Of a stretch of 64,000 bases of DNA, positions 26,205 to 64,000 are shown piece after piece. Below the pieces are notes generated by a model. The model had not been told where the DNA came from. It saw only the letters and a list, made by a program, of their open reading frames with translations, and made no database searches. The position numbers and the translations under genes are program-made. The stretch's first letter is position 1; the number at the start of each line of letters is the position of its first letter. Source of the DNA: Dictyostelium discoideum (Eukaryota). The DNA lies in contig CM000153.2 of assembly GCA_000004695.1 (NCBI GenBank), positions 4,032,001-4,096,000 of the forward strand, in the 5' to 3' direction.

Positions 26205-26239
<35 letters not shown>

Positions 26240-27404: not shown

Positions 27405-27437
<33 letters not shown>

Positions 27438-27590: not shown

Positions 27591-27759
27591 ATTTTTCCCC
27601 TTTTAAAATTCCCTTAAAAAATTTAATTTAAAACCTCAAAAAAAAAAAAAAAAAAAAAAATTTTAAATAGAATAAAATAAAATAAAATAAGGAATAGAAG
27701 TAATATATTAGTGTAATTCCAAAATATTACTCTACTTTTTACTCCCCTATCACTATTTT

Positions 27760-27818
<59 letters not shown>

Positions 27819-29453: not shown

Positions 29454-29531
<78 letters not shown>

Positions 29532-30677: not shown

Positions 30678-30702
30678 CTTCAAAAAAAAAGAAAAAACAA
30701 AT

Positions 30703-30776
<74 letters not shown>

Positions 30777-30976
30777 TAATAATAATTATAATAATATTAA
30801 ATAATTTTAAAAATTAATAAATAAAATAAATAATATTTAATTTAAAAAAAAAAAAAAAAAATTTATTAAACAAATTTATGTCAAAAGTATTTAATTAAGA
30901 TTAAATTGAAAGGAATAATTTTTTTTGTTTGATTTTTGTAATTTTATGAACTAATGAAAATATGGGTACCTAAAAA

Positions 30977-32802: not shown

Positions 32803-35352
32803 TTATTTATCTTTTTTAACTTCTTTTACAGGGGAAGGTGAAGAAGTTGCGGCTTTTTGTTGTTTTTTTAATAATTTTTGTTGTTGATTAATTTGTTTTT
32901 GAGTGAGTGGTTTTGTTGATTGTTGTTGTGGTGATGTTGGTTGTTGTTGAGATGGTGTAATAATTTCTGGTATTTGTTGTTGTTGAGCTGCTTGTTGAGC
33001 TGCTTGTTGTTGTTTTTGCTGAGCTGCTTGTTGTTGTTGTTGTTTTTGTTGAACTGTATCATTTGATTTTTTGTTTGCAACTTCATCATCGTCGCTATCA
33101 TCATCTGCAGCATCACCAATTTTTCTTTGTGGTGGTACAGGTTGTTGTTGAACACGTGGTAATGGTTGAAGTTGTAATGGACGTGGATTATGAGCGAGAT
33201 TAATTGAAACATCAGTTTCAACATCACAACCTAAATAACCATCACACATGACGTAGAGTGAATAATGAGCGGTACCAATTTCAGCGGCTGAAAGGAATGG
33301 ATATTTAACGATGGTACCTGGTGTAAAGGTTTCAGTTTTACCCAATGCAACCAATTCATTCTTTTGACGATTACCCATTAAAATCCAAAAGTTTACTGGT
33401 TTATCATCAAATGTGAATGGAGAATGACATAATTCCTTTGGTGGATTAATTAATGATTTCTTTGGTACTTTCTCCCAAGCATCATCGTCATCACTATCAC
33501 TGTATTCATCGTCATCAAATTCAGAGTCATCATCAGAGTCTTCAATTTCATTACCATCTGCATCTAAAATCTTTTTCTTTTCTTTCTTTTCTTTCTTTTC
33601 TTCTTTGATTTCTTCTTCTTGTTGTTCATCTTCACTTTGATCTTTTTCTTCGGCTTTACCAGAGGAGGAAGGGGATGATTCATCTTCTTTAGCACCATCT
33701 TTAGTTTTTTTAACGGTTGTTCTTTTTCTTGCACCACCTTTCTTTTCGGCTGGAGCTAAATTTGGTTTATTTTTAGCTGCTTCTTTGGTTGCGATGGCAG
33801 CGGCGGCTTCTTCTTGCTTTTGTTTTTTAAGTGCAATTTGATCAACAAACTCAACCTCTAAAATACAAACGGAACTAGCTAAGAATGTTGGATTTTCAGA
33901 GGTGATTCTCCATTTGATACCAACTTGACAAGGAATCTTTTCGAGGATGTTTTCAATATCTTTAATCTTTGCGTCGTTGAGGGCGGTACCACCAACTTTA
34001 GTTAATAGCTCCTTTCTCTTTTCCTCAGACATAGCTTTGAATTTGGCAATGTCTTGAACGTGATTACTCTTTAATTGTTGAGCCATGAAACTATCGAGAT
34101 GTGGTAATTGTTTGAGGGATTGATCTTCCCAAGCGCTTTGCATGATACATTGTGAGAGTTTAACCAATTCTACCAAACCAACCAATTGACGTTTCTCACG
34201 AGTGACTTGAAAAGCACCAGTCAAATAATGACGATAGGTCTTTATGATTTGATTGAGGTCATCTCTGAGGGTTTGTGGCATATCTTTGATACGGCATAAA
34301 TGGGCATACAATAGAATGGTACCCTTTACAATGTATGGAGCGTTGAAACGTGCCTTCTTAACCTTGTATGCGTCGGGAATGGATTTGAAGAGATTCTTCA
34401 AGTTTTCATCATCACTCTTTCTCTCTACCAAACTTGTCTTATACTCTGTGGTTGCAGCTAAAATTTCAATCATTGACTTTAGACGAGTTGTACCATCGAT
34501 CACATGATAGTAGAGTGCTAATGATTGTTGTTCAATTTGTGCTGGTAATTTACTCTTGGTACTCTTATTCCAATAGTAAACTGCACTTGGTAATGCAACA
34601 ACCAACAATAACAAATACACTGTCAATACAATTGGTGAATTACCCTTATTAATCAACCATGATGGTAATGCAATACCAATGGACATACGTTGTGGTCCAT
34701 CTGGATTACCATAAGTTTCCCATTTCTCTCTAATTGCATCATCAGTTAATGCTTGATATGCTTTTGCAATTGACATATACATTTCCTCTGCTTCAACATT
34801 ACCTGGATTCTTATCTGGATGAAATTTCAAACTCATCTTTTTATGTGCTTTTTTAATTTCTTCTGTTGTTGCTCCCTAAAAAAAATAATAATAATAAATA
34901 ATATTAAAAAATTAATATTTAATATATATTATTATTATTTTTTTTTAAAATTATTTATATATTTAATAATAATAACTTACAGGTTCAATGCCAAGAATTG
35001 TATAAGGATTATATGGTTCTTTAGTTGGTGCTGTACTTGTTAAAACAATGTATAACAAGAAGAAAAAGAGTACCCAAAAGAATGCAATGATACCAATTTT
35101 AATTTTATTTGATGTTGATTTCATTTCTTTCTTTTCTAATTTAATTCTTTCTTCAGATTTTCTTTCACAACCTTCACATGAACAATCGAAATGTTTAGCG
35201 ATTGGTTTTGGATTGAACTTTTTCCATAACCAAATTGTTGATGGAATTAATGCAACAAATAAAAAGAATACAAGCCATTGTACAAATTCAATATCTTTAT
35301 AATCCTCAGTTGATGATGTTTCTTTTCCAAAATTTGGGTGACTATCTTTCAT
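32803..35352 (-). CDS. sec63: Translocation protein Sec63 homolog (DnaJ domain plus Sec63/Brl domain), two exons: 34981..35352 and 32803..34875
   Basis: Exon 1 (MKDSHPNFGKE…three hydrophobic stretches…PYTILGIEP) ends at CCT|GTAAGT in phase 0. A 105-nt intron follows. Exon 2 follows ttttag: GATTEEIKKAHKKMSLKFHPDKNPGN…EMYMSIAKAYQALTD, a J-domain with the HPD motif. It is followed by the Sec63/Brl-type domain, an acidic/Lys-rich region, and a Gln-rich C-terminus. The domain order matches Sec63. Confidence 0.8.
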
Positions 35353-35972: not shown

Positions 35973-38792
35973 CTAAACACTTCCTTTTCTTAAATTTTTT
36001 CCAATTGTACTTTTTCTTGTTAAAATTCTATGACCACCAGCGGTATTACTACCACCACTATTATTATTATTAATTGGAGAAGAAGAAGTTGGTGATGATG
36101 ATATTGAATTATTTGATGAGATCGATCCAATCGATTCACGTTCGCCCATAATACCATCTTCCTCTTCTTTATTCCAAGAAAAGTTTTTAAATGGAGAATC
36201 TAAATTATAAACACTGGCAGCTGATGATTTTCTTCTTTGGAAATTAATTTTTGCATTTAATTCAGGATCACAACTTAGAGTTAAATTATTATTTGTTGGT
36301 TGTTGAGAATTATTATTTGAATTTGAATTTGAATTTGGTAATGAGATTTCTTTAATGGTTGGTTTGAATGGTGGTGTAATCATTTTACTTTCCAACATTC
36401 TCCAAGGTATTAACTCAAAGAATGGATGGGAAGAGATCTCTTCAAAGCCTTGGGTTGAGCCTAACCTTTTATTTGGGTCGGGTACCAATAGTTTCTCCAA
36501 TAAATCTTGTGCATCGGATGAGAGGAACATTGGCATTCTTAGATTACCTTGAATCATTGATTTATACATATCATTTCTGTTGCTTGCTAAAAATGGTGAT
36601 CTTCCAGTTAACATTTCAAACAATAATATACCAACAGACCACCAGTCCGCTGCCTTACCATGGCCTGCGCCAGTGATAATTTCCGGAGCCAAATATTCTG
36701 GTGTGCCACAAAATGTGGTTGCAAATCCACCTTCGCCACCATTTTTACTACCAACCACACTTGTGATACCAGATTTACTTAGACCGAAATCGGTCAATTT
36801 TATATGACCCTCCTCATCCAATAGAATGTTCTCGGGTTTAATATCTCTATAGATGATATTATTGGAATGTAGATAATGTAATGAACAAATCACCTCTGCT
36901 ATATAAAACTTTGCCAATTCCTCAGGGAATTTTCCAGCTTTTTGTAAATGATGGAATAATTCACCACCTGGTACATAATCCATACACATGAATAGGAAAT
37001 CCTCATTTTGGAATGCAAAATGTAATCTAACTATAAATGGATGGTCCATCGTTGACAATACCATCTTCTCTGTATTTGTATGTGCAATTTGTTTCTTTTT
37101 CAACATATCCTTCTTATTCAATACTTTCATAGCATAGAATTTACCTGTATCTTTTCTACGTACTAAATAAACTCTACCAAATGATCCAACTCCTAATACT
37201 TTTAATAGTTCAAAATCATCAATTGTTAATTTCTTTATACTTTGTTTATTCTTTTTATTTAAACTCTTTGATGATGATAAATCACGATCTGATGATGATG
37301 AAACTTCTAAATTATCAAAATTGATTGTACTTGAACAAACATCTTTTTTATCATTTGTTTGGGATGTGGTAGTTGAATTTGATTTTGTTATATTATTATT
37401 ATTACTATTATTATTTGATGGTAATGATGATGGTTGATTAATATAAGGATTATCTTTTTCTTTATTAATTTTACTACTACTATTACCACTACCACCACTA
37501 CCAATATTATTATCTTTATTTTTATCATCTTTATTATCATCTAAAACTATTTTAATATCAGCTTTTGTAATTGGTGTTGGTGTTGTTGTTGCTACAGTTT
37601 GAGTTGATTTCGAACTTTTCTTTAAAAGGAATTGTTTTTTCAATTCTTCTGCTCTAATTTTCCAAACTCTTGAACCCTCGGTTGAGTTACTATTTGGTGT
37701 ATTTGGCATTGCATTAATATGTTGCATTAATGCAGTTTGAGAATTAGAATTTGGTGTTAATGGACTTAATCCCATTGATTCACTTTCATTATTAAATTTT
37801 GATGCTTGTGATATTGGTAATGTTGGTGTTTTAAATGTTGACGTTGTTGTTGTTGTAGTTGTTAAATTACTATTATTATTATTATTATTATTATTAAATG
37901 AAATACTACTATTATTATTTGAACTATTTATAATACCACTACTATTAATTGATGATGAATAAAGACTACTATTACTTGCTGATGATGCTATTAAATTTGG
38001 TGGTGTTGAATTATTAGCATTATTATTATTACCACCACCGCCACTTGCCGATGAACTACTTGTACTGCTACCTGATAAACCTTGTGGATGATATGTTGGT
38101 GATGATATATTATTTTCACTAGTACTTTGAGATAATTGACTAATCATTCTACTACTACTTAACATTGGACTTGATCTATGTACACCAACACTCTCTGATA
38201 ATGGTGGTTGTGGAGGTGGTGATGATGACGTTGGTTGATTCGATGGATCACTAACATATAATCTTATTGGACTTGTATTTGGACTGGTGGCAGTACTATT
38301 CGAACCATTGCTACTAACACCACTTCCACCACCACCACCACCAGATGGTGATCCAACTCCTAATCTTTTAAATTCCGATATTATACTTTTGGCTTGTTCT
38401 GGTGTTTCTGCTTCAAAATGATATCGATGTAAAAATGTTAATGAAAATTTATGTGAATCAGTTGGATCTTGCTCAATACTATAAACATCTGAATTTCTAA
38501 CAAACCATTGACATGATTGTCCATTTAAATTTGAAACTCCTAATGAACTAACTGCCAATGTTCTAAAAATAATTAAATATAAATAAATTATTAATTATTT
38601 ATTATTATTATTATTATTATTATTGATTTTTTTTTTTTTTTTTTTTTACCTTTGTTGTCTTTTTCCATATGCATTTACTTTTATTACATCATATTGAGTG
38701 CAATACCTTTCTTTATGATGTGATAAATCTCTTTCTTTTTTCAAACCTGGAAACCATGAAGTTGGTGTCTTTGTTTGTTTTTTAAACGACAT
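35973..38792 (-). CDS. AGC-family serine/threonine protein kinase (~907 aa), two exons: 38650..38792 and 35973..38562
   Basis: Exon 1 (MSFKKQTKTPTSWFPGLKKERDLSHHKERYCTQYDVIKVNAYGKRQQ) ends at AG|GTAAAA in phase 2. The acceptor is ttttag at 38564-38563. Exon 2 begins (R)TLAVSSLGVSNLNGQSCQWFVRNSDVYSIEQDP…. The kinase core shows LGVGSFGRVYLV…AMKVL (VAIK-like), YRDIKPENILLD, DFGLSKSG, and the activation-loop segment TFCGTPEYLAPE. The C-terminal AGC tail ends in the hydrophobic motif FKNFSW. A long Ser/Asn/Thr/Gly low-complexity region lies between the N-terminal domain and the kinase domain. Confidence 0.75.
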
Positions 38793-45064: not shown

Positions 45065-45451
45065 ATGTCTTATCCAAAAAGATACGGCCAAGAAAATAAT
45101 AGAGTTCTAGGTGATGCAAATAATCAATGTATTCAAAGTATTAAAATGGGTTTTTTAATGGGTGCAGGTGTTGGTGCAACATTTGGTTCATGTATCGTTT
45201 TAATTATGTTTGCCGCAAAAAAATTACCAAGAGCTATTTTAATGAAAACTCTTGGCTCAAGTGCAATGAAAATGGGTGGTATGTTTGGTTGCTTCATGGG
45301 CATTGGTGGTGCATTAAGATGTGAAGTTGATGAAACTAAAATAAATAAAAATAATAAAAACAATAATAATAATAATAATAATATCCACTCATTTTTCAAA
45401 AATAGTAATACAGAATATGATATTTCAAAATTTAATAAAACCAAATTTTAA
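45065..45451 (+). CDS. ROMO1/Mgr2-family small mitochondrial inner-membrane protein with an Asn-rich C-terminal extension (128 aa)
   Basis: MSYPKRYGQ…CIQSIKMGFLMGAGVGATFGS…GGMFGCFMGIGGALRC matches, from memory, the two glycine-zipper TM helices and the KMGFxMG / GxFGxFMxIG pattern of ROMO1/Mgr2. Confidence 0.55.
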   Translation: MSYPKRYGQENNRVLGDANNQCIQSIKMGFLMGAGVGATFGSCIVLIMFAAKKLPRAILMKTLGSSAMKMGGMFGCFMGIGGALRCEVDETKINKNNKNNNNNNNNIHSFFKNSNTEYDISKFNKTKF

Positions 45452-45949
45452 AAAATAAAAAAATATTTATAAAAAAAAATAAAACTTTAAAAAAAAAAAT
45501 AAAAAACTAAAAATAAGTGTAAATAATCTCAATCGAATCAAATTAAACAAAAAATAAAATGAAAAAATAAAAATAAAAATAAAAAAATAAAAAATAAAAA
45601 AAGAATTTGGTTTGAATAAATTAAAAAAAAAAAAAAAAATAATTATTTATCTATCTTATTATTGAAGGTAGAGAGAGGGGGGTTATAACCCTGCTTGGAA
45701 CTGTGCACAATTAATTCGCCTATCAAAATCCAATCAAGTGAGATATTTTCTTTGATTATTATCATAAGCTGTTTGTTTTTTTTTTTTTTTTATATGAGGG
45801 TTTGTTTCAAATTATTTTTATCCAATCCAAATTTTTTCAATTTTTTTATTTTTATTTTTTTTTCAATAAAAATCAAAACAATGTGCGAAATTCTGATTTT
45901 GAAAAATTTTTGATCAATCTTTTTTTTTTTTTTTTTTTTTATTTTATTT

Positions 45950-46434: not shown

Positions 46435-49400
46435 ATGAAATCAAATACCAATATTAGGGTTTTACTCGTGTCTGGTTTAATTTTGATTTTTATATTTTTA
46501 GGAATAAAATTCGAATTTATAAATAAAAATAATAATGATAAAATTGGAATAAATAGAAAATTAGAATTTAGTTATTTTACTAAAAATAATAATAATAATA
46601 ATAATAATAACTTTAAACAAGATCAATTAAAAAATAAAAAAGATAAAAGAATTTTATTAAAAAATGAAATAATTGATACAAACATTAAAAAGAATATTAA
46701 AAAAAATAATCAAAAGAATAATAATGAAGAAATTTTCCCAAATTTTATTTCTAGATTATTAAAATCAAATGATGATATGGAAATCCAACAATTTACATAT
46801 AGAAAGAGTCATTATATAGTTCAATTTAAAGATCATATAAATGATGAAACTAGAGAACAATTTAAGCAATTTTTAATTAATACTGATATTGTGTTAGATG
46901 AACAACCATATCAATCACATATAGTTAATTATATACCACATGATAGTTTCTTAGTATTAATGAATGATGAACAAAGTAATTTATTATCAAGTAAAGAATG
47001 GGTATCTTGGATTGGTGAGTTTGAACCATCAAATAAAATACATTTAAATTATAATGAAAAATCAATTGGATTGCCAGTTTATATTAAATTAAGTGATTCA
47101 ACAAATTCATTAATTCAAAGATGGGAGAATACATTAAATTCAATTTTAACATCATATAATTCAAAAGTTAAATTAACATTAATTAATCAAAAGAAATTAA
47201 AATCAATTGTATATTGTAATGATGAATCATCATCACAATCATCATGTTCATTAGTTAGTTCAGAAAAGTTAGTTTATCAATGGATTTCAGAACAAAGTGA
47301 AAGTAATTATATTGAAAGATCAGAGAAATTTCAAACTGCAAATAGATTATCACCAAAGGCAATTTTCGGTACAAAAGATACATTGGTTAATAATGATAGA
47401 ATTGATATTCCATTGAGAGGTAAAGGTCAGATATTGAGTATTGCCGATACTGGTTTAGATGGTAGCCATTGTTTCTTTTCAGATTCAAATAATCCAATAC
47501 CATATAATAGTGTAAATTTAAATCATAGAAAAGTTGTAACTTATATTGGTTCTCTACATGATAATGAGGATTATGTCGATGGTCACGGTACACATGTTTG
47601 TGGTTCTGCAGCAGGTGCACCAGAGGATTCTTCATTGGCTATTTCATCATTTAGTGGTCTTGCAACTGATGCAAAGATTGCATTCTTTGATTTAGCATCC
47701 GACCCAAGTAATAATGAACCAGTTCCACCAGAAGATTATAGCCAATTATATCAGCCATTATATAATGCAGGTGCAAGAGTACATGGTGATTCTTGGGGTT
47801 CTCTTTCAATACAAGGTTATTTGGGTAGTTATTCCGATGATGCTGGTAGTATTGATGATTTCCTTTACACTCATCCAGATTTCATTATTCTTAGAGCTGC
47901 TGGTAATAATGAACAATATTCATCATTGCTATCACAAGCAACAGCCAAAAATGTAATTACAGTTGGTGCCGAACAAACTACTCACGAAAGTTATACCACT
48001 GATGCATTGGAATATTCAAATTTTGAAACAGTAGCAAAGAGTACATTAAATTCATTATGCCAATCATTTGATGATAAATATTGTACATATACAACTGCTC
48101 AATGTTGTACAGAATATTCAACTGTTAAAGGTTTATCAGGCTGTTGTACATCTTATATTAAAAATTCATACGCTTCAATATTTTCCTCACAACCAGAATT
48201 ATATAATGAGAATAATATTTGTTCATTCTCTTCAAAAGGTCCAACACATGATGGTAGATTGAAACCTGATATAGTTGCCCCTGGTCAATATATTACATCG
48301 GCAAGATCAAATGGTGCAAATACAACCGATCAGTGTGGTGATGGTTCTTTACCAAATACAAATGCACTATTATCAGAATCTGGTACATCAATGGCAACAC
48401 CATTAGCAACAGCAGCAACAACAATTCTTAGACAATATTTAGTTGATGGTTATTATCCAACTGGTTCAATTGTAGAATCAAATAAATTACAACCAACTGG
48501 ATCATTATTAAAAGCATTAATGATTAATAATGCTCAGTTATTAAATGGTACATTCCCATTATCATCAACAAATACAAATCCATCAAATGCAGTATTTGAT
48601 ACATTTGCAGGTGCAAATTTTGTTCAAGGTTGGGGTTCACTTAGAATGAGTGAATGGTTATATGTTGAATCATCAGGTGTTAAACCAAAACCATCAAGAT
48701 GGGTTGGTATTGGTGAATTAGGTAAAGATAAAAAAGCATCAAATTGGAAAGAATATAGTTTATCAACTGGTCAAAATGTTTCATATTGTTTCACATATAA
48801 ACCATCATCATCAGGTAGTAATAGTGGTGGTATACCAAGAATTGTTGCAACATTAGTTTGGACAGATCCACCATCATATTCTGGTGCAAAATTAAATTTA
48901 GTAAATAATTTAGATTTAACAATGACAAATACTGAATCAGAATTTATATTTTATTCAAATTCTGGTGGTTCATCATATAATGGTACAAAAGGTACAACAT
49001 TACCACTACAAGATTCAATTAATAATGTTGAAGGTATAATCTATACACCAATTAATACCAAATCAGAAATTTCTTTTAGATTTATAATTGCAGGTACCAA
49101 TATACCAATTGGACCACAAAATTTCTCATTTGTATTCCATGGTGAAAATGGTGAATTTGATTGGGCTGATAGTTGTATGCAATGTAATCCAGATGATACA
49201 CAACCTTGTTTCATTGAAAATGGTGTTGGTTCTCAAACTTGTGGCGATGATTATTTATGGGGTCGTTGTTTAGTACAATCTTGTAATAACAATTATAATT
49301 ATAATTCAATCTCTGATAAATGTTCAAAATTCTTATCATATAATTATATCGTTATCATTGTTGCAGGTGGTACAATGTCATTGATTATCACTGTATTAAT

Positions 49401-51912
49401 TTTAATTAAATATATGGAATATAAAGAAAATGGTAATAAATTTAGTTTAAAAGAATTTTTTAGTGGAGTTTTAGGTACTGGTAAAAATGTTAGTGGTGGT
49501 GGTAAAGGTGGTAGTGGTGGTAGTGGTAGTGGTAGTGGTACACTTAAAGATGGGACTATTGATGATGGTACAGGTATTCATGTTAGACCAAAACCAAAAG
49601 ATGCACCAGTTACACCACCAGATCTTTACAGTTTATTATCACCATTCATTATAGAGATAACAATTTCAACAGCTTGCTCGTTGGTGGCAACAGCAGCAAG
49701 TATCTTACAACCATATTATATTGGTCAAATTATTCAAGATATTCCAACAACTAAAGGTATTGGTGATTTAAGAGATCAATTTATTATTATATTTTTATTG
49801 GCCTTATTGGAATTTGTTTTCTCAACAATCAGTTCTTGGATCTCTGGTATTGTAAATGAAAAGATGGTAATGAGATTACAAAATAAAGTATTCCGTGCAT
49901 TGATTGCTCAAGATATGGGTTTTTTCCAAAAGAATAGTGCTGCAGTTTTAATGAATGTTTTAATCGTTGATACACCAATGTTAAGATCATCACTCACTGG
50001 TATACTATTATCAGTTTCAGTTGGTATTTGTAAATTTGTTGGTAGTTTGGTATTCATTTTCACAATTTCATGGAAACTTTCATTAGCATTCTTTGCAACC
50101 GTACCCGTATTGGCAATTGTAACACAAGTTCAATCTAAATTCACTAAAAGATTAACACGTAGATTATTATTCCACAATTCAAAAGCATCACAACATGGTC
50201 AAGAATCAATGGTCAATATGCATGTAGTTTCAAATTATTGTAAACAAGATAGAGAGATTGCAAAATATTCAGAGCAATTAATGATGGTTTTCCAAATTTC
50301 AAGAAGATTAATTATTAATAATACCTTTGCAGCTTCAATTAAATGGTTAATGGTTGAATCATTAGCTTTCATTATTCTTTATTTCGGTGCTTATCTTGCA
50401 ATTCAAAAGCAATTCACTGTTGGTCTTTTAGTATCATTCTCTTTATACATTGGTTATGTAATTGATTCTTCAACAACATTATTTGGTGTTTATTCAAGTT
50501 ATGTTCAATGTTTAGCTTCTGCAACTAGAGTATTCTTAATTTTAAGATCTGCACCAAGAAAAAGAACAACTTTAGAGGAAGAAGAACTTGATAATATTAT
50601 TGATACTAATCAAGATAATAATAATAACAATAATAATGATGATATTAGTGATAGTAGTAGTGATGATGATGATGATAATAATAATAATAAAAATAGTAAA
50701 AACAATAAAACTAAAAGTGGTGAATCGGATGATAGCTCAAGTGAAGATGCTGAATATAAAAAGAACAAAAATAAACGTAATAATGGTAAAATGACTACAA
50801 AACTATCAAATTCACCACCATTAGTAGGTGAAGGTATAGATAATAATAATAATAATAATAATGATAATAATATAAATGATGATAATAATCAACAAGATCC
50901 AAATAATAATAATAATGAAATTGATGATGATGGTGATGATGATGGTGATGATGATGATGAAGGTGAAGATGAAAATAATAATAATAATAATAATGATGAT
51001 CCAAATGATAATAATGGAATTGAAATGTTAACAGAAAAACAACTTAGAAAAAGAAAAAGACAAATGAAAAAAGAATTTTATAAGAAAACTGGTATTTCAT
51101 GTTTAGAATTAAATTTAATTCCATCAGCTTATACAGAGTTAACAGAATGTAGAGGTGAAATTGAATTTAAGAATGTATCATTTTGTTATCCATCAAGAGC
51201 AGATGTTGGTGTATTGTATAATATTGATTTGAAATTTGAATCTGGTAAATGCTATGGTTTGGTTGGTCCATCGGGTAGTGGCAAATCAACATTGTTGGAA
51301 TTGATTTCCAGATTCTATAGTCTACATCCATCAGGTGGTAAAATTTACATGGATGGTATTGATATTGCAAAAATCAGACCAAGTAATCTTAGAAGTTTCG
51401 TTACAAACGTTCATCAACATCCTTTCCTATTCGATGCTACAATTAGTGAAAACATTGGTTACGCATTGGATAATCCAACTCAAGAGGATATCATTGAAGC
51501 CGCCAAATTGGCAAATGCTCATGAATTCATTCAATCATTACCAAAACAATATGATACAATGTTAACTGATGGTGGTAATTTATCAGGTGGTCAAAAGAAA
51601 AGAATTGCAGTAGCTCGTGCAATTTGTGCAAAGAGAAAGATTATGTTATTGGATGAAATCACTGCTGAATTAGATCCAGAATCTGAAGAAGCTATCAATA
51701 AAAGTATTAAAGTTTTAACTCGAGGTCATACCGTTGTAATGGTAGCTCATAAAGTTGCTGCTGTCCGTGATTGTGATAAAATCTTTGTTTTAGATAAAGG
51801 TCAAATCGTTGAACAAGGTACTCATAATCAATTAATGGCTAAAAAAGGAAAATATTATAGAATGTTTGCTTTTTCTGAAGATGATGATTATGCTCCATTA
51901 TTAGTTTTATAA
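46435..51912 (+). CDS. tagD: Serine protease/ABC transporter fusion protein, Tag family copy 1 (1825 aa): N-terminal subtilisin-like S8 protease domain, a TM segment, an ABC transmembrane domain, and a C-terminal nucleotide-binding domain
   Basis: The signal/anchor is [22 protein letters not shown]. The subtilase catalytic triad motifs are present: [12 protein letters not shown] (Asp), [11 protein letters not shown] (His), and GTSMATP (Ser). A six-helix ABC TMD follows after about 980 aa. An Asp/Asn-rich linker of about 190 aa precedes the NBD, which has Walker [14 protein letters not shown], signature [14 protein letters not shown], and Walker [12 protein letters not shown]. It is a single ORF. 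The family identification is confident. The paralog name rests only on my recollection of the length and is tentative. Confidence 0.8.
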
Positions 51913-51940
51913 AAAAAATTTGATCATTTATTTTAAAAAA

Positions 51941-51981
<41 letters not shown>

Positions 51982-52089
51982 ATGAATCTTTTTGATCGAT
52001 TAATTTTTTATAAATCTAGTTTCCAATAAATCTCAAATAGTTAAAAAATAAAAATAAAAAAAAGTTATTTAATTGATTTTTTTTTTTTT

Positions 52090-52340
52090 ATAATTAAAGT
52101 CAATCTCAGGTTTTTGGAATTTTTTTTTTTTTTTAGAAATTAAAGTCAATTTCAGGTTTTTGGAAAATATTTTTTTTTTTTATAACAAAAAAAGGTTTCC
52201 AATTTCAACCCATTTTGGAAAATTACACCCTTTTTTTATTGGATAAAAATGGATAAAAATTATAATTTTTTTTTTTTTTTACTTATTAATATGCTTATGT
52301 GGTTATAAATGATAATTGTTTGAAAGGGTGGGTTTTTTTT
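52090..52340 (+). promoter_or_regulatory. Tag copy 2 upstream region: a duplicated 33-bp motif aattaaagtcaat(c/t)tcaggtttttggaa and the G-box-like element tgaaagggtgggtttt
   Basis: Direct repeats lie at 52093-52125 and 52138-52170. G-rich islands sit 250-700 bp upstream of all three tag ORFs (45676 gagaggggggtt, 52325 gggtgggt, 58803 ctgggggagggttg). Confidence 0.35.
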
Positions 52341-52417
52341 TTTTTTTTTTTTTTTTATTCAAAATTAAAAAAAAAACACCCCTTGTGTGTATATATATAT
52401 TGGGCGATGTGGCAGTG

Positions 52418-52448
<31 letters not shown>

Positions 52449-53056
52449 ATTTTTTTAAAAAAAAAAAAAAAATAAATTAAAAAAGAAAAAAATAGATTGA
52501 AATAATTCAAAACAACAAAAACACCTTCAAAAATTGTTATTATGTATCACATCGAATCTATCTAATTTTTTAATAATTCACCTAACAGACTCATGTGTTG
52601 TGTACAATTTTATATAATTGTTAAAATTGTCTTTTTATAATTAAATTTTAAGTGTTTTATAAATTAAAATTTAATTTTTTTTTTATTTTTTAATATTTCT
52701 TATTTTTAATCTTGTATCTATTAATTAAATAAAAAAATAAATAAATAAAAAAAAAATAAAAATAAAAAAAAACAACAAACAATTATTTTTTTTTTTTTTT
52801 TTTTTTAACCAACACATACAATAATAATTTCTTTTATTAAAAGATACAATTGACAAAATATAATTTCATAAGGTAATAGGATAAATTTTATTTATAATTT
52901 TAAAATATAAATATTTACTAATTTTATTATTTCATTTTTTTTATTTTTTTTTTTTTTTTTTTAGCTTAAACATTATTTATTACTATTATTACTTTTTTTT
53001 TTTTTAACAAAAAAAAAAAAAAAAAAAAAAAAAACCAAAAAAAAAAAAAAAAAAAA

Positions 53057-53333
53057 ATGAAATTTCATTTTTCATCTAACAAATTATTGTTGATATCAGG
53101 TTTAATTTTATTAGTATTGGTAATAGGCATAAAGTTAGATATATTTTTAAGTAGTAAAAGTACCGAATATATAAAATTCAATAATAATAATAATCATTTT
53201 AAAAGAGATAAAAGAATTTTATTACATAATGAAATAATTGATACAAATAATAAGCCATCAATTAAAAATAATCAAATATTTATTAATGATAATGATAATA
53301 ATGAAAATATATCACCAATTTTATTAAGAATAT

Positions 53334-53366
<33 letters not shown>

Positions 53367-56300
53367 GTGATGATAAATCAATTTATAAAAAGAATCATTA
53401 TATAGTTCAATTTAAAGATCGTATAAATGATGAAACTAGAGAACAATTGAAGGAATTTTTAATTGGTACTGATATTGTATTGGATGAGCAACCATATCAA
53501 TCACATATAGTTCACTATATACCACATGATAGTTTCTTAGTATTAATGACTCAAGAACAAAGTGTATTATTATCAAGTAAAGAATGGGTATCTTGGATTG
53601 GTGAATTTGAACCATCAAATAAAATACATTTAAATTATAATGAAAAATCAATTGGATTACCAGTTTATATTATATTAAGTGATTCAACAAATTCATTAAT
53701 TCAAAGATGGGAGAATACATTAAATTCAATTTTAAAATCATATAATTCAAAAGTTAAATTAACATTAATTAATCAAAAGAAATTAAAGTCAATTGTATAT
53801 TGTAATGATGAATCACCATCACCGTCATGTTCGTTAATTAATTCAGAAAAGTTAGTTTACCAATGGATTTCAGAACAAAGTGAAAGTAATTTCATTGAAA
53901 GATCAGAGAAATTTCAAACTGCAAATAGATTATCACCAAAGGTAGTTTTCGGTACAAAAGATACATTGGTTAATAATGATAGGGTTGATATTCCATTGAG
54001 AGGTAAAGGTCAGATATTGAGTATTGCTGATACTGGTTTAGATGGTAGCCATTGTTTCTTTTCAGATTCAAAGTATCCAATACCATTGAATAGTGTAAAT
54101 TTAAATCATAGAAAAGTTGTAACTTATATTACCACATCAACAAGCGACGATAGTGATAAAGTGGATGGTCACGGTACACATATTTGTGGTTCTGCAGCAG
54201 GTACTCCAGAGGATTCTTCAGTTAATATTTCATCATTTAGTGGTCTTGCAACTGATGCAAAGATTGCATTCTTTGATTTGGCAAGTGGTTCATCAAGTTT
54301 GACACCTCCATCGGATTTGAAACAATTATATCAACCATTATATGACGCAGGTGCAAGAGTGCATTGTGATTCTTGGGGTTCTGTATCAGTAGAGGGGTAT
54401 ACAGGTAGTTATTCATCAGACACTGCTTCAATTGATGATTTCCTTTTCACTCATCCAGATTTCATCATTCTTAGAGCTGCTGGTAACAACGAGCAATACC
54501 TATCACTACTCACTCAATCCACTGCAAAGAATGTTATTACCGTTGGTGCTCATCAAACAATTCATGAAAATTATTTAACTGATGGTCCAAATTATATAAA
54601 TTATCAATCATCTGTCGATATAAATCAAGAGTTAATATGTGATTTCGATAGCAGATATTGCAATTACACAACTGCCCAATGTTGCTTAGAATCAAACGCA
54701 ACCACTGGTTTAGCAAGTTGTTGTCCTACTTTACTTAGAAAAAGTGTAATTGACGCTGCAAATACTCAACCATTATTATACAATGAGAATAATATTTGTT
54801 CATTCTCATCAAAAGGTCCAACACATGATGGTAGAATGAAACCTGATTTAGTTGCCCCTGGTGAATATATTACATCGGCAAGATCAAATGGTGCCAATAC
54901 AACAGACCAATGTGGTGATGGCTCTTTACCAAATACAAATGCATTATTGGCGATATCTGGTACATCAATGGCAACCTCATTTGCAGCAGCAGCAACAACA
55001 ATTCTTAGACAATATTTAGTTGATGGTTATTATCCAACTGGTTCAATTGTAGAATCAAATAAATTACAACCAACTGGATCATTATTAAAAGCATTAATGA
55101 TTAATAATGCTCAGTTATTAAATGGTACATTTCAATTGATTACATCATCAAGTATTACATATCCATCAAACCAAGTTTTTGAAAATTTTGCAGGTGCAAG
55201 TTTAGTTCAAGGTTGGGGTGCTATTAGAATGAGTAATTGGTTACATGTTGTCAATAATAATAATAGTAATAATAATAATAAAACATCAGATGGTATAACT
55301 AAATTTGTTGGTATTGGTGGATTAGATTTAAGATTAGTGAAACCAAATCAATGGAAAGAAGAAAGTTTATCAACTGGTCAAAATACATCATATTGTTTCA
55401 CATATAAACCATCATCATCAAGTAGTAATAGTGGTAATAATATACCAAGAGTTGTTGCAACATTAGTTTGGACAGATCCACCATCATATGCAGGTGCAAA
55501 ATTTAATTTAGTAAATAATTTAGATTTAACAATGATTTATTATCGTGATAATGGTTCAACTATATTTTATTCTAATCAAGGTGGTTCATCATTTTTAGGA
55601 TTAGCACCAACTCAAGATACATTGAATAATGTTGAAGGTATAGTTCATAATCCAACGGAACCAATGACTTATAGATTCATGGTAGCGGGTACAAACGTAC
55701 CAATGGGACCACAGAATTTCTCATTCGTATTTCATGGTGAAAATGGTGAGTTTGAATGGGCTGATAAATGTCCACAATGCAGTCCAGGTCAAGTATTAGC
55801 ATGTCCAGTTGAAAATGGTATTGGTACTCAACTTTGTACAAGTGATTTACAATGGTCAAGTTGTTTAATTCAGTCATGTGATAATAATTATAATTATAAT
55901 TCAATTAAAAAAAGATGTGATAAATTCTTATCATACAACTATATCATTATGATTGTTGCAGGTGGTACAATGCTATTGATTATCTTTATTTTGTTACTCA
56001 TTAAATATCAAGAATATAAAGAGAGTAAAAAAGATAGTTTCCGTAGATTCGACGATGGTACAGGTATTTTCGTTAGACCAAAGGATAAAGACGCAAAAGT
56101 TTCATTGGCTGACCTTTATAATTTAATTTCACCATTCATTATTGAATTGGCGATTTCAACAGCATGTTCATTGGTTTCAACAGCAGCAAGTATCCTACAG
56201 CCATTCTATATTGGTCAAATTATTAATGATATACCAACTGCAAAACATATTGGTGATTTCAAGAGTCAATTCATTTTAATCTTCATATTGGCAGTTATAG

Positions 56301-58282
56301 AATTTGTTTTCTCAACAATCAGTTCATGGATATCTGGTATTGTAAATGAAAAGATGGTAATGAGATTACAAAATAAAGTATTCCGTGCATTGATTGCTCA
56401 AGATATGGGTTTTTTCCAAAAGAATAATGCTGCAATTTTAATGAATGTTTTAATTTCTGATACTCCAATGTTAAGATCGGCACTCACTGGTATATTATTA
56501 TCAATTGCAACTGGTTTATGTAAATTTGTTGGTAGTTTAGTATTCATTTTCACAATTTCATGGAAACTTTCATTGGTATTCTTTGCAACCGTACCAGTAT
56601 TGGCATTTATCACTCAAATCCAATCACAATTCACTAAAAGATTAACTAGAGCATTATTATTCTACAATTCAAAAGCATCACAACATGGTCAAGAATCAAT
56701 GGTTAATATGCATGTAGTTACTAATTATTGTAGACAAGATAAAGAAATCATTAAATATACTGATAATTTAAATAATGTTTTCCAAACCGCTAGAAGATTA
56801 ATCATTAATAATACTTTGGCCTCTTCAATTAAATGGTTAATGGTTGAATCATTGGCTTTCATTATTCTTTACTATGGTGCTTATCTTGCAATTCAAAAGC
56901 AATTCACTGTTGGTCTTTTAATTTCTTTCTGTTTATACATTGGTTATGTTATTGATTCAACAACAACATTATTTGGTGTTTATGTAAGTTATGTTCAATC
57001 TCAAGCTTCTGCAACTAGAGTTTTCATGATTTTAAGATCTGCACCAAGAAAAAGAACAACTTTAGAAGAAGAAGAAGCTGATAGAAATAATGGTTTAGGT
57101 GGTGGTGGTGGTAATAATAATAACAATGACGATGATGATGATGATGATAATTATAATGGTAAAGGTAATGATAATGGTAAAGGTAGTGATGATCCAAATA
57201 ATAATAATAATAATACAACATTAGAAAATATTGATGATAATGGTGAATTAACAACAGTGCAACCAGTTGAATTAACAAAAAAACAATTAAAGAAACAAAA
57301 AGAAAAAGAACAAAAAGAATATTTCAAGAGAACTGGTATTTCAGTTGTTGAAATGTCATTAATTCCATCAAGTTATATTGAATTAACAGATTGTAAAGGT
57401 GAAATTGAATTTAAGAATGTATCATTCCGTTATCCAACTAGACCAGATGTACAAGTTTTACATAATATCAATATGAAATTTGAAACTGGTAAATGTTATG
57501 GTTTGGTTGGTCCTTCAGGTAGTGGTAAATCAACATTGTTGGAATTGATTTCAAAATTCTATCCACTTCGTGATGGTGGAAATATCATAATGGATGATAT
57601 TGATATTGCAAATATTAGACCAAACAATCTTAGAGGTTTCGTTACATGTGTTCATCAAAATCCTTACTTATTCGATGCTTCAATTAAAGATAACATTGGC
57701 TACGCATTGGATAATCCAACTATTGAAGAGGTTATTGAAGCTGCCAAATTGGCATATGCTCACGAATTCATTAAAGATTTACCACAACAATATGATACCG
57801 TCTTAGGTTCAGCTGGTAGTTTGTTATCAGGTGGTCAAAAGAAAAGAATTGCAATTGCTCGTGCAATTTGTGCAAAGAGAAAGATTATGTTATTGGATGA
57901 AATCACTGCTGAATTAGATCCAGAATCCGAAGAAGCCATTACTCAAAGTATTAAAGTTTTAACTCAAGGTCATACCGTTGTAATGGTAGCTCATAAAGTT
58001 GCTGCTGTCCGTGATTGTGATAAAATCTTTGTTTTAGATAAAGGTTATTTAGTTGAAGAGGGTACTCATGATGAACTCATGGAAAGAAAAGGAAAATATC
58101 ATAGAATGTTTAATAATGAAAAAGATGAGGAAGAATTATTAAATAATTTAGGTTTACCATCTAATAATGAAACTAATAATGAAAATAATAATGAAAATAA
58201 TAATAATAATAACAATAATAATAATAATAATAATAATAATAACGATGATAATAATAATCAAGTTGTTGGGGAACAAGTTTAA
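53057..58282 (+). CDS. tagC: Serine protease/ABC transporter fusion protein, Tag family copy 2 (1741 aa)
   Basis: Same architecture and about 75-80% identity to copy 1: [30 protein letters not shown], Walker [39 protein letters not shown]. It is a single ORF. The paralog name is tentative and rests only on my recollection of the length. Confidence 0.8.
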
Positions 58283-58295
58283 AAATTAATTGAGG

Positions 58296-58345
<50 letters not shown>

Positions 58346-58816
58346 AAAATAAAATGTATAAATAAATTTAAAACTTTTTTTTAAGAATTGAGTTTCATTT
58401 TTTTTTTAAAGTTTGAGTTCATTTATTTAATTATTTTATTATTTTTTTTTTTCCTTGAATCATTGAAGATTTTAATATTTTTAAAAATAATGAAAATTAA
58501 TATTTTTTAAATGAAGTAATAATTATAAATTAATTAGATTGAAAGACGTTTTTATCAGTTTTTTTTTGACGAATAATATTACCTAATTATCTTGGAAAAA
58601 TAAGATTAGTTTCCGGAAAATTGGAAAATTAAAAAAATAAAAAATTCCAATACAACCCCCATAATTAATAGACATTGTATTAGTATTTTATTTGTGTAAG
58701 TTACATACAAATTTGATATTGAGTGGTTATATAAATGTTATATCTGTTAACTTTTTCTTTTTTTTTTTTTTTTTATTTTCTTTTTTTTAATTGTCTTTAA
58801 ACTGGGGGAGGGTTGC

Positions 58817-58867
<51 letters not shown>

Positions 58868-59118
58868 ATTAATAGAGTGGTGTTTTGTTTTGTTTTAGTT
58901 GATCACATCTCAAAAATTTTATTTAAATAAAAATAAAAAAAAAAACAAAAATAAAAATAAAAAAAACAAAAACAAAAATTAATAAAAAAAAAAAAAAAAA
59001 AAACACTAAAAAACAAACCTTTTTTATAAAAGTATTAAAAAAAAATTATATAATTATTTTATTTCATTATCTGTAACAAGTAATTTTATCTATCTATTTT
59101 TAAAAAATTGAAATAAAT

Positions 59119-59149
<31 letters not shown>

Positions 59150-59334
59150 GAATAAAATAAAATAAAAGGTAAAGTAGATAGAAAAATATCAACTCATAAA
59201 ATATTTTGTTTTTATTTATTGAATTTAGTATTAATAAAATTATTTTTCATTTTAATTATTTTATTTAATATTAATTTAAAAAAAAATAAAAAAAAATAAA
59301 AAAATAATAAAAAAAAAAAAAAATAAAATAAAAA

Positions 59335-59367
<33 letters not shown>

Positions 59368-59462
59368 GATATTTTAATAAAAGCTGTTTAAAAATAATTA
59401 ATAATAATAATAATAACAATAATTAAAATATTAAAAAATAAAAAAAATAAAAAAATAAAAAA

Positions 59463-59780
59463 ATGAAATTTCAATTTTCATCGCCCAGTAAAATATTTCT
59501 GTTTTCAAGTGTAATTTTGATATTAATATTTATAGGAATAAAATTTGAACTACTTGAAGATACAAATAGCAACAGAAATGATAAATTTAATAATATAATT
59601 AATAGATTTATAAATTATAATATCGATGACTCAATTTATAAAAACAAACAACAACAACAACAATTTTCAAATAAAATTTATTCAAATGAAAAGAAAATTT
59701 TATTAAAAAATAAAATAATTGATACAACAATTAAACCTTCAATAAATATTAATAATAATAATAATAATAATAATAAATTA

Positions 59781-59864
<84 letters not shown>

Positions 59865-62800
59865 TATTATAATAGTATTGAATATTATTCATCATTCGTA
59901 TCAAGATTATTAAAATCAAATGATGATGATGGTATTTATTATGATGACTATCAATCAAAATATAAAAAGAATCATTATATAGTTCAATTTAAAGATCGTA
60001 TAAATGATGAAACTAGAGAACAATTGAAGGAATTTTTAATTGGTACTGATATAACAATATTAAAAGAACAACCATTTAAATCACATATAGTTCACTATAT
60101 ACCACATGATAGTTTCTTAGTATTTATGACTAAAGAGCAAAGTGTATTATTATCAAGTAAAGAATGGATATCATGGATTGGTGAACATGAACCATCAAAT
60201 AAAATACATTTAAATTATCATGAAAAGTCAATTGGATATCCGGTTTATATTATATTAAGTGGTTCAACAAATTCATTAATTCAAAGATGGGAGAATACAT
60301 TAAATTCAATTTTAACATCATATAATTCAAAAGTTAAATTAACATTAATTAATCAAAAGAAATTAAAATCAATTGTATATTGTAATGATGAATCACCATC
60401 ATCATCATCATCATCGTCATGTTCATTAATTGGTTCTGAGAAAATTGTATATAAATGGATTTCAGAACAAAGTGAAAGTAATTATATTGAAAGATCAGAG
60501 AAATTACAAACTGCAAATAGATTATCACCAACTGTAATTTTCGGCACAAAAGATAAATTGGTTAATAATGATAGAATTGATATTCCATTAAGAGGTAAAG
60601 GTCAGATATTGAGTATTGCTGATACTGGTTTAGATGGTAGCCATTGTTTCTTTTCAGATTCAAAGTATCCAATACCATTTAATCAAGTGAATGAAAATCA
60701 TAGAAAAGTTGTAACTTATATTACTTACCATGACAATGAAGATTATGTAAATGGTCATGGTACACATGTTTGTGGCTCTGCAGCAGGTACTCCAGAGGAT
60801 TCTTCATGGGCTATTTCATCATTTAGTGGTCTTGCAACTGACGCAAAGATTGCATTTTATGATCTTTCATCTGGAAGTTCTGAACCAACACCACCCGAAG
60901 ATTACAGTCAAATGTACAAACCATTATATGATGCAGGTGCAAGAGTACATGGTGATTCTTGGGGTTCTGTATCTTTGCAAGGTTATTATGGTGGTTATTC
61001 CGATGATGCTGGTGGTATTGATGCATTCCTCTATGAGTACCCAGAATTCTCTATACTAAGAGCTGCTGGTAATAACGAGCTATTTGCATCTTTATTAGCT
61101 CAAGCAACAGCTAAAAATGCAATTACAGTTGGTGCTGAGCAAACAGCTCATGTAAATTATGTGTCAGATGCATTGGAATATTATGATTTCTCAGATAATG
61201 CTAATTTTCAAAGACCATGTTTATTCGATAAGAAGTATTGTAATTATACGACCGCTAAATGTTGCTCAGAGGTTTCAAATGTTAAAGGTTTACAATTATG
61301 TTGTCCAGCATCTATTAAACAAAATGCATCGGATTCATTCACAACACAACCTCAATTTTATAATGAAAATAATATGGGATCATTCTCATCAAAGGGTCCA
61401 ACACATGATGGTAGATTGAAACCTGATATAGTTGCACCTGGTGAATATATTACATCGGCAAGATCAAATGGTGAGAATTCAACAGACCAATGTGGTGATG
61501 GTTCTTTACCAAATGCAAATGGTCTAATGTCAATATCTGGTACATCAATGGCAACACCATTGGCAACAGCAGCAACAACAATTCTTAGACAATATTTAGT
61601 TGATGGTTATTTCCCAACTGGCGAATCTGTCGAAGAGAATAAACTACTACCAACTGGATCATTATTAAAAGCATTAATGATTAATAATGCTCAATTATTA
61701 AATGGTACTTATTTTTGGAGTGCATCAAGTACAAATCCATCAAACGCAATATTTGAACAAATTAATGGCGCAAATTTAATTCAAGGTTGGGGTGCACTTA
61801 GAATGAATAATTGGTTATATGTTAAATCATCAAATCCAACACCACCATCAAGATGGATTGGTATCGGTGGTTTAGGTAAAAATCAAAAAGCAACTGAATG
61901 GAAAGAAGATAGTTTATCAAGTGGTTTAAATAAATCATATTGTTTCACATATAAACCATCATCATCATCATCAGGTAGTGGTGGTGGTGGTGGTACACCA
62001 AGAATTGTTGCAACATTAGTTTGGACAGATCCACCGTCATATTCTGGTGCAAAATTTAATTTAGTAAATAATTTAGATTTATTATTATTAAATAGTGATG
62101 ATGATTCAATAATTACAATTGGTAATTCTGGTGGATCATTACAACCAGCAGGAAAGGTAGCACAACCTGATACATTGAATAATGTTGAGGGTATAATTAT
62201 TAATCCAACCAAAGCAATGAATTATAAATTTACAATCGCAGGAACCAATGTACCAATTGGACCACAAAAGTTTTCATTTGTATTCCATGGTGAAAATGGT
62301 CAATTTGATTGGGCTGATAGTTGTCCACAATGTGTTGATGGTGTTCAATTTCCTTGTTTAATTACAAATGGAATTGGTATCCAGTCATGTGGATCCGATC
62401 TACTTTGGACAAAATGTATTGTACAATCTTGTAATGAAGGCTATAATTATAATTCACTCAAGAATACTTGTGATAAATTCTTATCATACAATTATATTAT
62501 CATTATCGTTGCAGGTGGTACTATGGTATTGATTATACTATTACTAATGTGGATAAAGTATCAAGAATATAAAGAGAGTAAAAGGGATAGTTTCCGTAGA
62601 TTCGATGATGGTACAGGTATTTTCGTTAGACCAAAGGATAAAGATGCAAAAGTTACGCCCCCTGATCTTTATAATTTAGTTTCACCATTCATTATCGAAT
62701 TAACAATTGCCACAGCATGTTCATTGGTCGCAACAGCAGCAAGTATCTTACAGCCATTCTATATTGGTAATATTGTAAACAACATCCCAACAACTAAAAG

Positions 62801-64000
62801 CATTGGTGAATTTAAGAGTGATTTCATTATTATCTTCATATTGGCATTCATTGAATTTTTATTTACAAATGTTGGTTCATGGATATCTGGTATTGTAAAT
62901 GAAAAGATGGTAATGAGATTACAAAATAAAGTATTCCGTGCATTGATTGCTCAAGATATGGGATTTTTCCAAAGAAATAATTCAGCATTGTTAATGAATG
63001 TTTTAATCGTTGATACACCAATGTTAAGATCGGCACTCACTGGTATACTATTATCAATTGCAACTGGTGTTTGTAAATTAGTTGGTAGTTTAGTATTCAT
63101 TTTCACAATTTCATGGAAACTTTCATTGGCATTCTTTGCAGCCGTACCAATTTTAGGTTTAGTAACTCAAATTCAATCACAATTCACTAAAAGATTAACT
63201 CGTCAATTATTATTCCATAATTCAAAAGCATCACAACATGGTACTGAGTCATTAACAAATATGCATGTAGTTACCAACTATTGTAAACAAGAGAAAGAAA
63301 TGGTTAAATATTCAGATCAATTGATGAATGTTTTCATTACTGCTAGAAAATTAATCATTACAAATACATTTGCTGGAACTGGTAAATGGTTATTAATAGA
63401 ATCATTAACATTTGTCATTCTTTATTTCTCTGCTTATTTAGTAATTCAAAAACAATTCACCGTTGGTTTAATGATTTCATTCTCTTTATACATTGGTTAT
63501 GTTGTTGATGCTTCAAGTTCTCTATTTGGTGTTTATGTTAGTTATATTCAATGTTTAGCTTCTGCAACTAGAGTTTTCATGATTTTAAGATCTGCACCAA
63601 GAAAAAGAACAACTTTAGAAGAAGAAGAAGCTGATAGATTAGCTGGTTTAAGTGGTGGTGGTGGTGGTGGTGGTGATAATGGTGATGATAAAAAAGATAA
63701 ACAAAATATTGAAAATGGTAAAGATGTTTTACCTTCAAATATTATTACACCAATTGATAATGTTGAAAATAGTAATGGTAAACAAGATGATCCAAATAAT
63801 AATAATAACAATATTGGTAATCTTGATTATAGTGAACAATTAGATGGTGTTTCAACAGTTGCTGATAGTACAGTTGGTTTAACTAAAAGAGAATTAAAAA
63901 AACAAAAAGAAAAAGAACAAAAAGAATATTTCAAACAAACTGGTATTTCAGTTGCTGAAACTCCAACATTTTTACCATCAAGTTATACAGAGTTAACAGA
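59463..64000 (+). CDS. tagB: Serine protease/ABC transporter fusion protein, Tag family copy 3, 5' portion (runs off the window end inside the ABC TMD-to-NBD linker)
   Basis: ATG at 59463 ([29 protein letters not shown]…). The frame was checked as continuous at several points (for example [20 protein letters not shown] at about 60595, [18 protein letters not shown], then TMD helices). It is absent from the ORF track only because no stop falls inside the window. A long in-frame (AAT)n poly-Asn tract lies at 59750-59870. The paralog name is tentative. Confidence 0.7.

Follow-up and report, generated by a model that had tools for sequence, protein, structure and literature searches.

The last 18 kb of a stretch of 64,000 nucleotides from Dictyostelium discoideum (GenBank assembly GCA_000004695.1, contig CM000153.2, positions 4,032,001 to 4,096,000; the whole stretch is referred to as the window and numbered from its first letter) hold, with a probability that we put at roughly 0.93, the tandem cluster tagD-tagC-tagB, whose genes each encode a fusion of an S8 serine protease with one half of an ATP-binding cassette (ABC) transporter. 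This cluster has already been described and studied experimentally, and re-finding it in the window is correct but not new. Possibly beyond the literature searched are a gene-conversion tract shared by tagD and tagC, the selective constraint on TagD, and a third tag copy in Dictyostelium purpureum. These side results may help Dictyostelium geneticists to choose the next knockout or to correct orthology tables.

Organization and identity of the cluster

Two complete open reading frames (ORFs) and one open-ended ORF were found in tandem on the plus strand, with collinear domains, as a first-pass annotation made from the letters of the window had proposed. The first (tagD, 46435-51912) and the second (tagC, 53057-58282) are single-exon coding sequences uninterrupted by stops, and their products of 1825 and 1741 amino acids (aa) have exactly the lengths given in that annotation. 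For the third (tagB, 59463-64000) only the 5' part is covered: it begins with an ATG at 59463 and stays open for 1512 codons, without a stop before the window end, and its last residues, SSYTELT, lie directly ahead of the nucleotide-binding domain (NBD). The G+C content is ~20% across the whole window, which is typical of Dictyostelium. We take TagC to have a length of 1741 aa and the tag cluster to lie on chromosome 4, presumably under the identifiers DDB_G0286119, DDB_G0286121 and DDB_G0286123.

In an exact-sequence look-up, the translation of copy 1 was identical over 1825/1825 residues to TagD of D. discoideum AX4 (XP_637863.1 / UniRef100_Q8T9W1), the record of which is titled "Serine protease/ABC transporter B family protein tagD". 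The same array of three genes recurs in L001, a second assembly of D. discoideum, and in two assemblies of Dictyostelium citrinum (L002 and L004), where a gene of ~1820-1830 aa is followed by one of 1718-1735 aa and then by one of ~1830-1880 aa. These assemblies also have neighbors in common, namely Romo1 upstream and UCR_14kD (minus strand), RGS and Peptidase_M48 downstream; in the window, the Romo1 ORF (Pfam) lies upstream of tagD at 45065-45451. The Tag-family identity claimed by the first-pass annotation is thus borne out by the exact match of copy 1 and by the conservation of the array. Copy 1 shares 89% identity with its D. citrinum ortholog. Copy 2, the middle gene, matches the genes in the middle of the L001 and L002 arrays at 96% and 90.5% identity, respectively, and copy 3 shares 94-95% identity with the third gene of L001 and 90% with a D. 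citrinum protein (P0003).

According to Sucgang et al. (2011, PMC3188802), TagA to TagD belong to the ABCB subfamily, consist of an N-terminal serine protease, one six-helix transmembrane domain (TMD) and one NBD, and are encoded by genes named by their order. Because copy 1 matches TagD exactly, the array order is conserved and the naming follows that order, we read copies 1, 2 and 3 as tagD, tagC and tagB; the names TagC and TagB are thus assigned from array order, orthology and the literature.

Domain architecture

Pfam reported Peptidase_S8 (PF00082) in all three copies (E 1e-48 to 1e-53), ABC_membrane likewise in all three (E ~1e-54) and ABC_tran in copies 1 and 2 (E ~1e-27), the NBD of copy 3 being located beyond the window. 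TagD, all parts of which lie on the plus strand, starts with a hydrophobic segment that may be a signal peptide or a signal anchor (aa 6-24, 46450-46506, Kyte-Doolittle peak 2.42), and equivalent N-terminal segments occur in copies 2 and 3. It is followed by Peptidase_S8 (aa 329-734, 47419-48636, E 2.3e-49), in which IADTGLD (336-342), HGTHV (384-388), AAGN (488-491) and GTSMA (650-654) provide the catalytic Asp, the His, the oxyanion Asn and the Ser. An extra transmembrane (TM) helix (aa 972-990, 49348-49404, Kyte-Doolittle peak 2.72), followed by basic residues, separates the Cys-rich ectodomain from the ABC TMD (ABC_membrane, aa 1076-1344, 49660-50466, E 2.6e-54, covering profile positions 2-272 of 274). 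A low-complexity linker rich in Asn and Asp (189 aa, 50587-51153) then leads to the NBD (ABC_tran, aa 1595-1744, 51217-51666, E 5.1e-27). The corresponding domains of TagC, also on the plus strand, are Peptidase_S8 (aa 316-721, 54002-55219, E 2.4e-48), ABC_membrane (aa 1031-1300, 56147-56956, E 5.1e-55) and ABC_tran (aa 1468-1618, 57458-57910, E 5.4e-28), and those of TagB within the window are Peptidase_S8 (aa 378-777, 60594-61793, plus strand, E 2.8e-53) and ABC_membrane (aa 1081-1349, 62703-63509, plus strand, E 5e-55).

The S8 and ABC motifs quoted in the first-pass annotation were found as written. [VI]CGSAAG, AAGNN and GTSMAT[PS] are present in each of the three copies, and in copies 1 and 2 the Walker A motif, the Q-loop VHQ[HN]P, the signature LSGGQ, the Walker B motif IMLLDE, the D-loop AELD and the H-loop AHK are intact. 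The accompanying claim that all three copies keep both their catalytic and their Walker residues holds for the protease throughout and for the ATPase of copies 1 and 2, but does not stand as worded for copy 3, the NBD of which is outside the window; the allele of copy 3 in L001 runs on into an NBD with intact Walker and signature motifs. Across nine tag genes of three species the catalytic and ATPase motifs are conserved.

The ABC half shows the features of the ABCB or type IV exporters, that is, ABC_membrane together with an NBD bearing Walker A, Q-loop, signature, the Walker B Glu and H-loop. Its nearest solved chains are ABCB4 and ABCB1 (E ~1e-150), with the half-transporters ABCB9 and ABCB10 also among them. 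For the protease half, the nearest solved structures are the KP-43 protease (1wmd) and SubHal (5fax), both with E ~1e-40. A kexin- or furin-like convertase (S8B) was considered and rejected, as no match to the kexin-type P-domain (PF01483) was reported by Pfam in the Tag copies and the nearest structures, KP-43 and SubHal, are of the S8A type.

Each Tag protein would therefore be built, as far as the sequence can tell, in the following order: a signal sequence or anchor, a prodomain-like region, an S8A subtilase of the KP-43 type, a Cys-rich stalk, the extra TM helix, a six-helix TMD of the ABCB (MDR) type, the Asn/Asp linker and a single NBD. The prodomain-like region, the S8 domain and the Cys-rich stalk together make up an ectodomain of ~950 aa per protein. 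Type IV ABC exporters start the first helix of their TMD from the cytosol. Since the extra TM helix precedes a TMD of this kind, the protease is predicted to face the outside or the lumen, and the NBD the cytosol. As a half-transporter, each protein would have to pair with a second half for activity.

Differences among the paralogs

Over aligned columns, the protein identities of the three pairs of copies are 74.8%, 69.9% and 72.5%, and the nucleotide identities among the copies are 78-82%. An earlier estimate of 75-80% identity is therefore too high for the proteins (70-75%) and agrees with the nucleotide level only. The linker lengths proposed at that stage (about 190 aa in copy 1 and about 100 aa in copy 2) are close to those obtained when counting from the TMD end to GEIEF, which gave 189 aa for copy 1 and 107 aa for copy 2. 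The copies do not, however, differ mainly in this linker. Strong divergence is also seen in the N-terminal ~120 aa and in a Cys-rich insert inside the S8 domain, a Gly/Ser insert of ~34 aa after the first TM segment is found in TagD only, and an Asn-rich C-terminal tail of ~45 aa in TagC only.

The Cys-rich insert (48007-48195, TagD aa 525-587) sits between the Asn and the Ser motifs of the S8 domain. It is the most divergent folded part among the paralogs (53-61% identity, synonymous divergence dS >1), yet it is 88-95% conserved between orthologs. We regard it as a candidate region for substrate specificity.

Age of the triplet and gene conversion

In a neighbor-joining (NJ) tree over the whole gene length, the closest partner of each window gene is its D. 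citrinum ortholog (100% bootstrap), TagD and TagC being sisters (91%) and TagB standing outside. Because of this pairing (ortholog dS ~0.3), the tag triplet is older than the split between D. discoideum and D. citrinum. Of the recent tandem duplication suggested by the first-pass annotation, the tandem arrangement is confirmed, but "recent" is true in a relative sense only, the triplet predating this split. According to Glöckner et al. (2016, PMC4931340), TagB and TagD were duplicated from TagC in D. discoideum only.

However, the D. purpureum locus (L003, GL870963.1) is syntenic, adjoins Romo1 and holds three complete or near-complete Tag ORFs (10001-15367, 16291-21588 and 27218-31588, the last ending with the locus), an ABCG gene in inverted orientation separating the third from the second. 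The catalytic residues are intact in all three. The gene range on record for this species, 10001-21588 (11.6 kb), spans two complete ORFs, and its product (P0005) matches the second only. In the tree, the D. purpureum copies form a clade of their own (100%), as do the D. discoideum and D. citrinum genes (95%). Such species-specific clades fit either independent triplication or concerted evolution.

Along the gene, dS between the window copies ranges from ~0.05 to >1 and the branching order of the paralogs shifts between segments. One tract on the plus strand stands out, which extends over ~240 codons of the prodomain and the N-terminal catalytic region and links tagD 46906-47640 (aa 158-402) with tagC ~53492-54226. 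Here the dS between paralogs (0.09-0.25) is lower than that between orthologs (0.18-0.47), and a nucleotide NJ tree of the tract groups D. discoideum tagD with tagC (97% bootstrap). In three control segments, the orthologs group together at 92-100%. The tagD/tagC tract was thus homogenized by gene conversion after the split of D. discoideum and D. citrinum, and concerted evolution is demonstrably at work in the cluster. A second, short patch of low dS was observed at TagD aa 648-707.

Selection and the status of TagD

Between D. discoideum and D. citrinum, the ratios of nonsynonymous to synonymous divergence (dN/dS) are 0.18 for TagD, 0.12 for TagC and 0.09 for TagB, and across the S8, TMD and NBD domains they are ~0.02-0.09. 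TagD itself is under purifying selection. Among the paralogs, dN/dS is ~0.5, as against 0.09-0.18 among the orthologs. The paralog dS (0.36-0.42) barely exceeds the dS of the D. discoideum and D. citrinum orthologs (0.28-0.35), while the paralog dN is 4-6 times higher. This may reflect either fast protein divergence after duplication or a dS that was lowered by repeated conversion.

The tandem layout on one strand and the collinear domain order would also be expected if the three copies were an artefact of assembly or collapse, or very recent segmental duplicates of one gene. We rejected the assembly artefact on the nucleotide divergence and on the ortholog-pairing tree, and give the explanation as a whole practically no credence: 18-22% of the nucleotides and 25-30% of the residues are different between the copies, the intergenic regions between them are not homologous, and each copy has, besides its own D. 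citrinum ortholog at 100% bootstrap, a counterpart in the independent D. discoideum assembly. TagD could, on the other hand, be a redundant and decaying duplicate, a pseudogene in the making, with TagB and TagC the only copies that matter. Its dN/dS is the highest of the three, its linker is the longest and evolves fast (dN/dS 0.56), and no function of TagD was found in the literature searched. Against this stand an uninterrupted ORF of 1825 codons, the integrity of all catalytic and ATPase residues, an ortholog kept in D. citrinum at 89% identity, and dN/dS values of 0.07 for both the S8 domain and the TMD and of 0.06 for the NBD. Given these ratios and the intact motifs, we rejected a pseudogene, and consider decay of TagD very improbable. 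Because of the low dN/dS and the retention of all catalytic residues, TagD is read as a functional gene, whose product is most likely either a third protease for signal processing or a dimerization partner. By homology and constraint, it would act like TagB and TagC on a further substrate, or serve as the partner half of TagB or TagC.

Taken together, we hypothesize that the prodomain and the N-terminal catalytic region (TagD aa ~158-402) stay near-identical among the three paralogs through ongoing conversion, while the substrate-facing Cys-rich insert and the TMD diverge; that the three-copy state may be older than published, depending on whether concerted evolution or independent duplication applies; and that TagD is a constrained third signal-processing protease or an obligate heterodimer partner, the substrate of which may be a Dictyostelium peptide signal that still lacks a protease. 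We offer this combined hypothesis tentatively and rate its chances at slightly below even.

Proposed function

The peptide precursor AcbA, released by prespore cells, is cleaved to the 34-aa SDF-2 by TagC, the trypsin-like protease of which is exposed on prestalk cells after GABA (gamma-aminobutyric acid) signaling (PMC2828923), and display of this protease domain at the cell surface depends on the ABC activity of TagC (PMC3743828). SDF-2 targets DhkA, inhibits RegA and allows encapsulation to be set off by PKA (PMC8067170). TagB has been linked to the processing of SDF-1 and to prestalk differentiation (PMC3743828; PMC4334915). The role that the first-pass annotation had given for TagB and TagC in SDF-2/AcbA signaling and prestalk differentiation is well documented in this literature (PMC3743828, PMC2828923, PMC4334915, PMC8067170). 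Applied to the window genes, AcbA from prespore cells would be cleaved to SDF-2 by the product of copy 2 on the prestalk surface, SDF-2 would promote spore encapsulation via DhkA, RegA and PKA, and the product of copy 3 would be required for prestalk differentiation and SDF-1 processing.

Bacterial peptidase-containing ABC transporters (PCATs) have their C39 cysteine peptidase at the cytoplasmic face, where it trims a double-glycine leader off the cargo before this is exported. The Tag proteins might work in a comparable way, the ABC half exporting a precursor that the fused protease cleaves on emergence, with the cargo as substrate. A protease fused to an MDR-type exporter whose ATPase is fully intact would suit such a mechanism, as would the wording "signal processing and export" used for the tag genes by Miranda 2013 (PMC3743828). 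However, the peptidase is of family S8 and not C39, a family that Pfam did not report in the Tag copies, and it is predicted on the membrane face opposite to the NBD, unlike in PCATs. Furthermore, AcbA is made by prespore cells, leaves them by unconventional secretion and is cleaved by TagC from outside (PMC3743828, PMC2828923, PMC8067170), and ABC activity has been reported for exposure of the protease, not for export of a cargo (PMC3743828). Having the wrong peptidase family on what is probably the opposite face from the NBD, the Tag proteins could not be counted as PCATs, and we consider an export-coupled mechanism of this type unlikely. Because the peptidase family, the membrane face and the origin of the substrate differ, the Tag system is an ectoprotease module for signaling rather than a PCAT-like machine in which maturation is coupled to export. 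Of the two alternatives named in the first-pass annotation, the ectoprotease module is thus retained, and processing and export is not what the cited work reports for TagC.

Some points weigh against reading the window genes as the tagD-tagC-tagB cluster, or against details of that reading. The look-up of copy 2 returned no entry with the exact TagC sequence in the protein collection, so that its name rests on order, orthology and length, and copy 3 is cut by the window end. Both the membrane topology and the dimerization are predictions, and the Tag ABC half may or may not transport a substrate. Lastly, functional data on TagD were not found in the literature searched.

Upstream regions and neighboring genes

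G-rich boxes occur on the plus strand upstream of each copy. The box of tagD (GAGAGAGGGGGGTT, 45671-45684) is located 764 bp upstream of the ATG, a weaker one (GAAAGGGTGGGTT, 52322-52334) ~733 bp upstream of the ATG of tagC, and that of tagB (CTGGGGGAGGGTTG, 58802-58815) 661 bp upstream of its ATG. Only the tagB box is conserved, reading TTGGGGGAGGGGGTTGCC in L001 and, with partial conservation, AGTGGGGTTGC in D. citrinum; upstream of D. citrinum tagD no counterpart of the tagD box was detected, and neither L001 nor D. citrinum gave a tagC box when the same threshold was applied. Upstream regions of orthologs can be aligned, at 70-74% with D. citrinum and at 86-89% with the second strain, whereas no homology was detected among the three paralogous upstream regions. 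The boxes noted in the first-pass annotation do exist, but the shared regulation that it derived from them finds no backing in homology or conservation. We likewise rejected the boxes as marks of duplicated promoters, given the lack of paralogous upstream similarity and the poor conservation of all but the tagB box. G-box elements are common in Dictyostelium developmental promoters. The tag boxes are compatible with such elements, with no evidence of a shared duplicated regulatory region.

Similar G-rich boxes were found in unrelated intergenic regions of the window. A further G-box (GTGGGTGTGGGA) is located at 27311-27322, and an inverted repeat at 27548-27591 in AT-rich intergenic DNA consists of a run of nine G (ATAGGGGGGGGGAGAA) and, 13 bp on, a run of nine C (TTTCCCCCCCCCAAA).

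Other genes identified in the window by Pfam encode an alpha-amylase (2368-3708, minus strand), an FNIP-repeat protein (16100-18103), a PIP5K (20059-23007), a phospholipase B (24446-26275), an F-box/WD40 protein (28377-30377), a Sec63/DnaJ protein (32806-34836, minus strand) and a protein kinase (35976-38558, minus strand). The protein kinase and Romo1 are syntenic with the D. citrinum locus L004.

Compared with window positions 49543-64000, L001 (GCA_054859355.1, labelled D. discoideum) differs by 4-6% in the tag coding sequences and by ~8-14% in the intergenic regions, and shows many insertions and deletions in Asn-rich runs; its TagB has 1844 aa and its TagC 1735 aa. This divergence is unusually high for a conspecific strain.

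Comparison with known systems and distribution

The window genes are TagB, TagC and TagD of D. discoideum; their architecture matches the published one, and nothing in them is different in kind. The same fusion of S8 with an ABCB half is seen in TagA and in single TagC-like genes of other dictyostelids (Heterostelium album P0009 and Acytostelium gene_6301), the Heterostelium protein sharing 45-52% identity with the window copies. Unlike the clustered window genes, TagA and the TagC-like genes are unlinked single genes. TagA takes part in cell-fate determination when development begins (PMC3743828; PMC4334915).

With PCAT1, ComA, LagD and CvaB, the Tag proteins have in common, as a matter of general knowledge, an N-terminal peptidase on a type IV exporter half that is tied to the maturation of a peptide signal or bacteriocin. 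They differ in that the Tag peptidase is an S8 enzyme behind a signal sequence and an extra TM helix, probably on the outer face, and in that the TagC substrate comes from other cells. For the TMD and NBD, the nearest solved relatives are ABCB1/ABCB4, ABCB9/TAPL and ABCB10 (E 1e-150 to 1e-79). ABCB1/ABCB4 and the ABCB half-transporters are without the protease, the extra N-terminal TM helix, the ectodomain of ~950 aa and the Asn/Asp linker of 100-190 aa. On the protease side, KP-43 and SubHal, high-molecular-mass S8A subtilases of Bacillus, are soluble and secreted, whereas the Tag proteases would be membrane-tethered and carry the Cys-rich insert between the Asn and Ser motifs.

In a word-indexed search of 5.8e9 clusters, the named matches with the full fusion were all dictyostelid (D. 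discoideum, D. citrinum, D. purpureum and Heterostelium album), and the other matches comprised the ABC half alone or the S8 half alone. An exhaustive scan of 1.84e9 representatives, for which the query extended from S8 through the extra helix to the TMD, gave only 3 clusters (50% level) that cover both S8 and the TMD, one of them TagB/C/D and two of metagenome origin. The metagenome proteins (P0121, 1678 aa; P0122, 1674 aa; JGI, soil-type) matched at 33-34% identity and carry S8, ABC_membrane and ABC_tran, and they may be encoded by TagA-like genes of uncultured amoebae. The S8/ABC fusion is essentially confined to dictyostelids, and the tag genes are one of the lineage-restricted signaling inventions of dictyostelid multicellularity.

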